A stretch of DNA of 64,000 nt from Alphaproteobacteria bacterium (GTDB lineage: Bacteria; Pseudomonadota; Alphaproteobacteria; CALKHQ01): the NCBI GenBank assembly GCA_965227515.1, contig CBDDFZ010000002.1, positions 1,152,001 to 1,216,000 on the forward strand. The letters are read 5' to 3'. Each line of letters opens with the position of its first letter. Within the stretch, counting starts at the first letter, position 1. A program made the translations under genes and the position numbers. Positions 30,997 to 32,216 of this stretch are shown here, piece by piece. Under the pieces are notes generated by a model. That model searched no databases. It was not told the DNA's origin and worked only from the letters and a program-made list of their open reading frames with translations.

Positions 30997-31039
30997 AACT
31001 CATTACGCGAAGTCTGCTCCAGCCCTTGTATCTCATTTT

Positions 31040-31200
31040 GTGGCCGCTGCGGTTATTGTAGCGGTGGCGGAGACGGGCGGGAGGCCGCAAGGCCCTTGGT
31101 CTCGAAGACCGTGGGAGAGCTTGGCACCCTGCCCGTTGTTCCAATGAACCCGAACAGTCGCTTGGTCCGCCGTGCGAGACCGCATTTGCAAGGACGGGTG
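31040..31200 (+). ncRNA. Putative bridge RNA in the IS110 left end
   Basis: 5' stem-loop, then a target loop (CAAGGCCCT 31088-31096, GGGAGAG 31113-31119) and a donor loop (ACAGTCGCT 31154-31162, GCAAG 31188-31192), each closed by stems. Ends approximate. Confidence 0.8.
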
Positions 31201-32133
31201 ATGGAACAGGTTTTCGTTGGCATTGATGTCTCGAAGGCGCGGCTCGACGTGCATGTCTTGCCGTCCGGCCAGAGCTTTGCTGTCGCACGAGACGGTGACG
31301 CTCTGGCAAGTCTTGTCGAGGACCTGGCCGGGCTGTCGCCGGGCCTGATCGTGCTGGAGGCGACTGGCGGCTACGAGGTCACGGTGGCCGCGGCGCTGGC
31401 CACGGCCGGACTGCCGCTGGCCGTGGTCAACCCGCGCCAGATCCGGGACTTCGCGCGTGCCCTTGGCCTGCTTGCCAAGACCGATGCGCTAGATGCCAAG
31501 GCGATCGCGCTGTTTGCCGAGCGGGTCCGGCCCGAGCCTCGGCCGCTGGCCGACACCCAGACCCAGGTGCTCAGCGAGCTGATCGCCCGCCGGCGCCAGA
31601 TCGTCGTCATGATGACCGCCGAGCGCAATCGCCGCAGCCAGCTCACCAGCCGACGCATGGTCAAGAGCGTCGACCGCCTGCTGGCGGCCCTGCAGAAAGA
31701 ACTCTCCGCCCTCGAACGCGAGCTCGATGAGACGATCCGCGGCACACCGGCTTGGCGCGAGGACGAAGACCTGCTCAAGAGCGTGCCTGGTGTCGGCGAT
31801 ATCACCGCCCGTGCGCTGATCGCCGACCTACCTGAACTCGGACGTCTCGACCGAAAGAAGATCGCTGCCCTCGTCGGCCTGGCGCCGTTCAACAGGGACA
31901 GCGGTACCATGCGCGGCAAGCGCACCATCCGTGGGGGACGGCGTCATCTGCGCACAACCCTTTACATGGCAGCCTTGGTCGCCAGCCAACGGAACCCGAT
32001 CCTCAAGGCCTTCTATCAACGCCTGCTCCATGCCGGAAAGCCAAAGAAGCTCGCGCTCGTCGCCGTCATGCGCAAGCTCCTCGTCATCCTCAATGCCATC
32101 ATCAGAGATCGGACCCCATGGCAAAACGCTTGA
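31201..32133 (+). CDS. IS110 family DEDD recombinase/transposase
   Basis: GIDVSK, LEATGGY, NP, KTDALDA, SVPGVG, GLAP..RDSG, GG...[15 protein letters not shown]. Confidence 0.96.
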
Positions 32134-32150
32134 CACAAAAGACAGTCGCT

Positions 32151-32216
32151 CTCCCCCACCCGGCCACCCAGCAGCATAATTTCGTTGGGCGGCCGGGTGG
32201 GGGAGAGGGCTGGTGC
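32151..32216. repeat. Palindromic repeat family A, copy 2 (split by IS110; left fragment 31016-31026)
   Basis: GCTCCAGCCCT + CTCCCCCACCCGGCC...GGCCGGGTGGGGGAGAGGGCTGGTGC. Confidence 0.88.

Follow-up and report, generated by a model that had tools for sequence, protein, structure and literature searches.

An IS110-family insertion sequence, probably guided by a bridge RNA, occupies the arms of a dispersed intergenic palindrome

Introduction

In a 64,000-nt stretch of DNA, hereafter the window, an IS110-family insertion sequence (IS) interrupts one arm of an intergenic palindromic repeat, denoted family A, and the locus raises the question of how such an element recognizes its landing site and whether the dinucleotide at the core of the repeat arm decides which copies become occupied. 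Before 2024, target recognition by these elements was attributed to protein-DNA contacts or to the shape of the target hairpin. Two studies from 2024 established RNA guidance as the mechanism and defined the CT core (PMC11208160, PMC11208158). An earlier note, made from the sequence of the window, had held that the element hit the only family A copy with a CT core, that it uses a dispersed repeat as a landing site in the manner of IS621, and that core variants are immune. Here, we dissect the element, its predicted RNA, and its host repeat, both in the window and across the genome.

The element and its insertion site

The element spans 1,122 bp (window positions 31027-32148), from T31027 (TGTATCTC...) to G32148 (...GACAGTCG), with a CT dinucleotide at each flank (31025-31026 and 32149-32150). 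Its ends, TGTATC... and ...CAGTCG, contain no terminal inverted repeats, and the insertion is accompanied by no target duplication, the same core dinucleotide being present on both sides. Excision of the element together with one CT joins GCTCCAGCC-CT to CTCCCCCACCCGGCC, yielding a 26-nt arm that matches the reverse complement of the right arm (32191-32216) at all but one position, arm position 3 (T vs A). The right arm of the occupied copy retains an intact GCCCTCTCCCCC site; on both of these points, direct reading of the sequence bears out the earlier note. The interrupted palindrome consists of the following parts, with the insertion point marked by a slash here and below:

31016-31026, plus strand: outer 11 nt of the interrupted left arm of family A (GCTCCAGCCCT), the final CT of which (31025-31026) is the core dinucleotide of the left junction
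31027-32148, plus strand: IS110-family insertion sequence of 1,122 bp, with four full copies in the genome at 98.9-100% identity
32130-32135, plus strand: TTGACA, 13 nt from the right end of the element, read by eye
32149-32165, plus strand: second copy of the CT core (32149-32150), then the inner part of the split left arm, 15 nt, CTCCCCCACCCGGCC (32151-32165), from sequence reading
32166-32190, no strand: palindrome loop, variant ..CAGCAGCATAATTTCGTTGGG.., found elsewhere only beside the 100%-identical IS copy on contig C1
32191-32216, minus strand: intact right arm, the minus strand of which bears a second, unoccupied GCCCT/CTCCC site

The palindrome is preceded by a stop codon at 30996 and followed by the start of trxB at 32356. 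The open reading frame directly upstream (28960-30996, plus strand; 678 aa) has no Pfam match, yet is conserved beside trxB in the nearest genomes, with 71-73% nucleotide identity. In a circular form of the element, the TTGACA near the right end would be followed, 17 nt downstream, by TATCTC (31029-31034, also read by eye), and the two motifs could act as a junction promoter. This reading is modeled on IS621, for which a junction promoter has been described (PMC11208158).

The recombinase

The single gene that we annotated in the element encodes a protein with the two-domain architecture of IS110-group recombinases:

31201-32133, plus strand: recombinase gene, 310 aa, DEDD RuvC-like domain and Tnp domain, from profile and structure-chain matches

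Both domains were detected with comparable significance (PF01548, E = 4.4e-22; PF02371, E = 4.7e-22), and the protein passes the NCBIfam model NF033542, 'IS110 family RNA-guided transposase', with 230 bits against a cut-off of 140. The best match among solved structures is the ISCro4 recombinase (PDB 9t56; E = 9.9e-40, residues 3-307), and the IS621 chain 8wt6 aligns with the protein over its full length (phmmer E = 4.5e-37, 131 bits). The catalytic residues of IS621 are D11, E60, D102, D105, and S241 (PMC11208158); the motifs that align with them, GIDVSK, LEATG, KTDALDA, and RDSG, contain D9, E53, D95, D98, and S234 of the window protein. The IS621 chain in the PDB appears to carry two extra N-terminal residues, an offset inferred from the chain length. 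The sequence motifs thus place an N-terminal RuvC-like DEDD domain and a C-terminal Tnp domain with the catalytic serine in the same polypeptide, as in other members of the IS110 group.

A predicted bridge RNA with guides that covary with the insertion site

The non-coding DNA of the element lies mostly before the gene, with 174 nt at the left end vs 15 nt past the stop codon at the right end, the arrangement typical of the IS110 group, in which the bridge RNA resides in the left end. The left end folds with a free energy of -81 kcal/mol (z = -2.66 relative to shuffled sequences). For comparison, relatives of the recombinase were collected from species-representative genomes, where 289 of 432 candidate stretches encode a relative and 79 loci were kept. 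The closest relatives, with 74-75% identical recombinases, come from alphaproteobacterial MAGs; judged by these relatives of the element, the host is probably alphaproteobacterial as well. Left and right ends were inspected in 26 of the 79 loci: four have other sequence at the expected left end, one has no recognizable right end, and one yielded a false right-end match, and the remaining 24 right junctions read ...GTCG/CTC. The alignment set consisted of nine left ends, one per distinct type, from eight relatives and the window element.

The consensus structure of the nine left ends comprises 48 pairs, 11 of which show compensatory changes, and includes a 5' stem-loop, a long stem with an internal loop around a hairpin, and a second stem with a second internal loop. 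The sequence and the consensus structure together reveal a long non-coding region with two internal loops ahead of the recombinase gene, as is characteristic of the IS110 group. The following parts were assigned:

31027-31200, plus strand: non-coding region at the left end, bridge RNA with 5' stem-loop, target-binding loop, and donor-binding loop, from the fold and the consensus structure
31088-31096, plus strand: left target guide CAAGGCCCU, which varies within alignment A1 and follows the left flank in relatives
31097-31111, plus strand: hairpin between the two target guides (UGGUCUCGAAGACCG), alignment columns 74-88
31113-31119, plus strand: right target guide GGGAGAG, fully complementary to the right flank CTCTCCC, which consists of the CT core and 5 nt
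31154-31162, plus strand: left donor guide ACAGUCGCU, reading as the terminal 7 nt of the IS followed by the CT core
31188-31192, plus strand: core of the right donor guide, GCAAG, read by eye, able to pair with CT and the opening bases of the element (CTTGT, including one G-T wobble)

Alignment A1 varies between elements in two blocks, which form the two sides of the first loop and coincide exactly with the target guides; the donor guide ACAGTCGCT, like the ends of the element, is conserved throughout the aligned set. The 7-nt right guide agrees with the right flank of its own element at 7/7 positions in 9/9 elements, which between them carry five distinct guide sequences (GGGAGAG, GGGTGAG, GGATGAG, TGGTGAG, and GCATGAG). 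When every guide was compared with every flank, an element's own flank was the top or tied match in all nine rows of the table and the sole maximum in six. The left guide is matched by its own flank at 4/9 to 9/9 positions across the element set, with the register mis-set by the script for one locus (L023). For the window element, the last 6 nt of the left guide are identical to the left flank GGCCCT; the flank in the window itself, AGCCCT, leaves five matches. Against the family A arms, 5-6 of the 9 left-guide positions match, and no site in the genome is matched beyond 6 nt, such that the natural target amounts, in effect, to about 11 bp. The donor side shows the same correspondence: the left donor guide is identical in eight of the nine aligned elements, the ninth (L037) has ACGG at both the guide and the end, and in 9/9 elements, the donor guide repeats the right end of the same element together with CT. 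Guides that match, and covary with, the flanks and the element's own ends are a further feature of the IS110 group. In IS621, likewise, the left guide is described as equivalent to the top-strand sequence and the right guide as pairing with the top strand, with the CT core included in both pairings (PMC11208160).

These observations bear on the alternative that the recombinase reads the palindrome through protein-DNA contacts or hairpin shape alone, with the RNA complementarity being incidental. The targets are indeed located in hairpin stems, both here and in several relatives, and for ISPpu10, additional specificity from a target stem-loop has been reported in a 2026 preprint (10.64898/2026.03.19.712850), a result that may be relevant to the present element because its target sits in a hairpin stem. 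However, agreement of the right guide with its own flank at every position in all nine elements, through five guide variants, is hard to reconcile with incidental complementarity; moreover, the RNA structure is backed by compensatory changes, and the recombinase belongs to a family for which RNA guidance has been solved structurally. We therefore regard recognition by protein or shape alone as highly improbable and favor guidance by the bridge RNA.

An Rfam scan of positions 30500-32700, with E-values up to 1, retrieved no bridge RNA family; apart from chance microRNA matches on the palindrome, the sole match was a sub-threshold one to sX15, with 35.5 bits vs a gathering score of 55 (E = 0.0012), which covers the bridge RNA region (31067-31207) on the minus strand. 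sX15 is described as a small RNA of a Xanthomonas plasmid; asX7 is its complementary partner, and Stenotrophomonas maltophilia has 10 homologues (PMC3300014). The sX15/asX7 pair may represent the non-coding end of an IS110-type element.

The host repeat

Exactly three copies of family A are present in the window, represented by five exact arm matches and one IS-chimeric arm; one additional match, with two mismatches, is unrelated. As a search pattern, the loose arm motif alone is close to noise, with seven matches vs 3.09 expected and 4 of 100 shuffles reaching seven. The paired inverted arrangement of the arms is not noise: folded as DNA, both empty copies in the window form hairpins, with z-scores of -9.4 and -5.9, and none of 200 shuffles was as stable. 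These copies are as follows:

4929-5006, no strand: empty family A copy with CACT, a non-CT core, in both arms, from the sequence, the arm search, and the fold
37640-37717, no strand: unoccupied copy of family A, left arm CACT and right arm CGCA, both non-CT cores; the hairpin is mismatched there

At the core position, the two empty copies read CCCACTCCCCC, and one arm reads CCCGCACCCCC.

Family A was catalogued genome-wide (two contigs, 5.52 Mb) as inverted arm pairs 32-46 nt apart. The catalogue contains 136 intact elements, in addition to the four occupied ones, and the intact elements hold 271 distinct arms, a tally that leaves out the four IS-chimeric arms. A CT core is found in 205 (76%) of the 271 arms and another core in the other 66; the full CTCT site is present in 160 of the 271, all of them empty. 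The same CNCN variant occurs in both arms in 101 of the 136 elements (CTCT/CTCT in 73, CTCA/CTCA in 12, and CACA/CACA and CGCA/CGCA in 5 each), a pattern that the window copy at 37640-37717, with CACT and CGCA, breaks. The matching of arm variants implies either that the hairpin is kept or that palindromes are duplicated whole, as subfamilies.

A longer mosaic repeat has family A at its center, with AAGTCGGC conserved just outside each arm and at least two alternative modules beyond it: among 280 arm flanks (140 pairs, including the four IS-occupied ones), ..TAGAGCATGATCATTT.. is found in about 28 and ..GGGATCAGCTTACGCTGAATCT.. in about 74, with examples at window positions 31000-31015 and at C1:3321317. 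Many of the outer modules begin near a CTAG. Being a short palindromic repeat present in many copies that fold as DNA hairpins, family A resembles REPs and REPINs. Unlike REP systems with an associated RAYT, the repeat was not found to flank a RAYT (Y1) gene: the genome contains two matches to PF01797, with no convincing arm within 1.5 kb of them, the sole arm-like match near either one being a single match with two mismatches.

Copies of the element in the genome

The genome contains four full copies of the element, namely, the one in the window, C1:3321404-3322525 (100% identity), C1:2520681-2521802 (99.0%), and C1:85064-86185 (98.9%), as well as two left-end remnants, C1:3870887-3870941 (55 nt, 98%) and C1:1500199-1500287 (89 nt, 83%), each still joined to ..GGCCCT on the left. 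The left junction reads ..GCCCT/ in all four full copies and in both 5' remnants, and to the right of all four full copies lies /CTCTCCCCCACCCGGCC, followed by the loop and then by an intact right arm. The element thus occupies the same position of a family A arm in 6/6 cases (four full copies and two remnants), and no copy was found elsewhere in the genome. Its right end always points to the palindrome loop.

At the remnant C1:3870887-3870941, the break joins approximately IS position 56 to sequence that normally follows the family A right arm (GCAGATTCAGCG...), and a deletion therefore took the rest of the IS together with the rest of the palindrome. The same genome harbors a second IS110-family element, in two copies (C1:1350120-1351400 and C1:1792750-1794030), with a recombinase 39-42% identical to that of the window element and located inside a different inverted repeat (TTGTCATCCTTGACCGG ... 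CCGGCCAAGGATGACAA). From its sequence context, it may form another pair of an IS and a repeat family.

The link between the IS and the repeat could, in principle, stem mainly from copying, with one IS-bearing palindrome having been spread by gene conversion or by a mobilizer of family A, in which case the six cases would reduce to few independent events. Two of the full copies are compatible with such a history. Between the window copy and C1:3321404-3322525, there is no difference from 7 nt before the IS to 70 nt beyond it, and the two share a loop variant that is found nowhere else in the genome, where 140 paired elements carry 119 distinct inner segments. The identical tract spans window positions 31027-32218 and C1:3321334-3322532, that is, the IS and 70 nt comprising the inner arm, the loop, and the right arm, and because the element and this flank are shared at 100%, the two copies may not be independent insertions. 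However, their left arms and outer modules differ, with mismatches at -8, -14, -16, and -17, as does the module to the right, which fits a conversion tract laid down after two separate insertions. The simplest reading of the tract is gene conversion that began in the long homology of the IS and ended in the right arm, and it is possible that such homology within the IS drives conversion that overwrites neighboring palindrome sequence. The remaining two full copies are set in other loops and flanks, and their sequences deviate from that of the window copy at 11-12 positions; when copies are oriented by their loops, the arm that holds the IS is not always the same; and the guides track the flanks in relatives from other genomes. 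Altogether, spread by copying is an unlikely main source of the association, and we consider repeated guided insertion into family A to be the better account.

Core variants and occupancy

The genome-wide tabulation recasts the earlier claims about the core. The earlier note correctly read CA and CG at the core of the two unoccupied copies (4929-5006 and 37640-37717), and the view of a dispersed palindromic repeat serving as a landing site, as REPs do for IS621, holds, given that 6/6 cases are in family A arms and the guides match the site. That the occupied palindrome is the only copy with a CT core is true within the 64 kb but not in the genome, where 205 of the 271 arms have this core; uniqueness is an artefact of sampling one window. 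The notion of CT as a rare variant singled out by the element has to be abandoned, with 76% of the arms carrying it and 160 CTCT sites standing empty. Across the genome, no copy of the element was found outside family A and none in an arm with a CA or CG core; neither of the two outcomes that the earlier note had named as refuting its view was thus encountered.

That all six insertions lie in CT-core arms is expected by chance (P = 0.20), because 205 of the 271 empty arms are of this type. For the full CTCT site, the corresponding probability is P = 0.047, or P = 0.078 if the two identical copies are counted once. Occupancy in this genome thus fails to discriminate between variants, and immunity of core variants is a plausible prediction from the core-pairing rule of IS621, for which pairing to both strands of the CT core is reported to be strongly preferred (PMC11208160). 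With a CA or CG core, mismatches would arise to the two target guides as well as to the donor core, and an arm reading CTCA would have one mismatched position opposite the right guide; on this basis, variant arms can reasonably be predicted to be poorly used.

Empty alleles were sought in 30 related genomes, none of the same genus, and in none of these was the palindrome present with the IS absent. The three nearest genomes keep the gene order (the upstream gene, then trxB), with a spacer that contains neither family A nor the IS, and there was no full-length match to the IS in any of the 30. Contigs from four public runs contain the IS at about 99% identity (for example, 12 differences over 1169 bases); these contigs end in or beside family A arms, and none joins across the IS at the window locus. 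A 13-letter loose end in two of the public runs was considered as the flank of the C1:3321404 palindrome, which would have indicated insertion into the other arm in another strain. This assignment was rejected, given that the 13-mer is part of an outer module with 17 copies in the genome.

Proposed mechanism

Taken together, the data make it very probable that this is a bridge-RNA-guided IS110-family element of the IS621 type, programmed for GGCC-CT-CTCCC in the stem of family A. The non-coding RNA upstream of the recombinase gene would guide insertion into this sequence, which lies in the stem of the commonest (CTCT) variant of the roughly 78-nt palindromic intergenic repeat. In the proposed scheme, the left guide would correspond to the top-strand sequence left of the cut, the right guide would pair with the top strand right of the cut, and the donor loop would recognize the joined ends of the element, presumably in a circular intermediate. 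The chemistry would consist in recombination at the shared CT, which, as a consequence, would leave CT on both sides of the insert and no target duplication. Each palindrome would offer two sites, one per arm, with the right end of the element directed toward the loop. Arms with a CA or CG core, or with CTCA, would be mismatched by the guides and should be poor targets.

The subfamilies of the repeat differ exactly at the positions that the bridge RNA reads. It is conceivable, if improbable, that these subfamilies (CTCT, CTCA, CACA, CGCA, and others) are escape variants that owe their spread to being out of reach of the element, with sister elements in other genomes following by means of changed guides (GGGAGAG, GGGUGAG, GGAUGAG). 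Should this be the case, a genomic repeat and an RNA-guided transposon would be engaged in an arms race.

Comparison with known systems

A search of a plasmid collection yielded only distant relatives, the nearest with 64-68% nucleotide identity, and no named copy of the window element. The sequence of the element is new; its behavior is already known for IS110 elements in REP-like repeats, and our understanding of target choice by such elements is unchanged. The value of the locus lies in providing a clean natural example of a bridge RNA in a high-G+C genome, with a compact length of 1,122 bp, a 7-nt right guide, and guide variants in sister elements, a natural set that could serve those mining such systems. 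There is also a practical lesson, in that a three-copy sample in one window misled as to which repeat variant is rare.

IS110-family elements located solely inside REPs were catalogued in 2006, including ISPa11 (6/6 copies), ISPpu9 (7/7), ISPpu10 (7/7), and ISRm19 of Sinorhizobium meliloti (4/4) (PMC1525189, Table 2). The window element behaves like these Pseudomonas elements (ISPpu9, ISPpu10, and ISPa11) and ISRm19 in that every copy is found at one fixed position of a REP-type repeat, 6/6 in the present case, although the elements themselves and the repeat family are different. The resemblance to IS621 of Escherichia coli encompasses the two-domain recombinase with DEDD and serine residues, the left-end RNA with target and donor loops, the CT core with CT on both sides, and natural targets in REP-type intergenic palindromes. 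In contrast to these shared features, the protein match is distant, the window element is shorter (1,122 bp), its right guide pairs over 7 nt compared with 4 nt in IS621, and its left guide is matched over 5-6 nt compared with 9 nt. The hosts differ as well: the repeat in the window is a different, roughly 78-nt hairpin in a genome with 66% G+C, and the nearest relatives that bear such an element are alphaproteobacterial MAGs.
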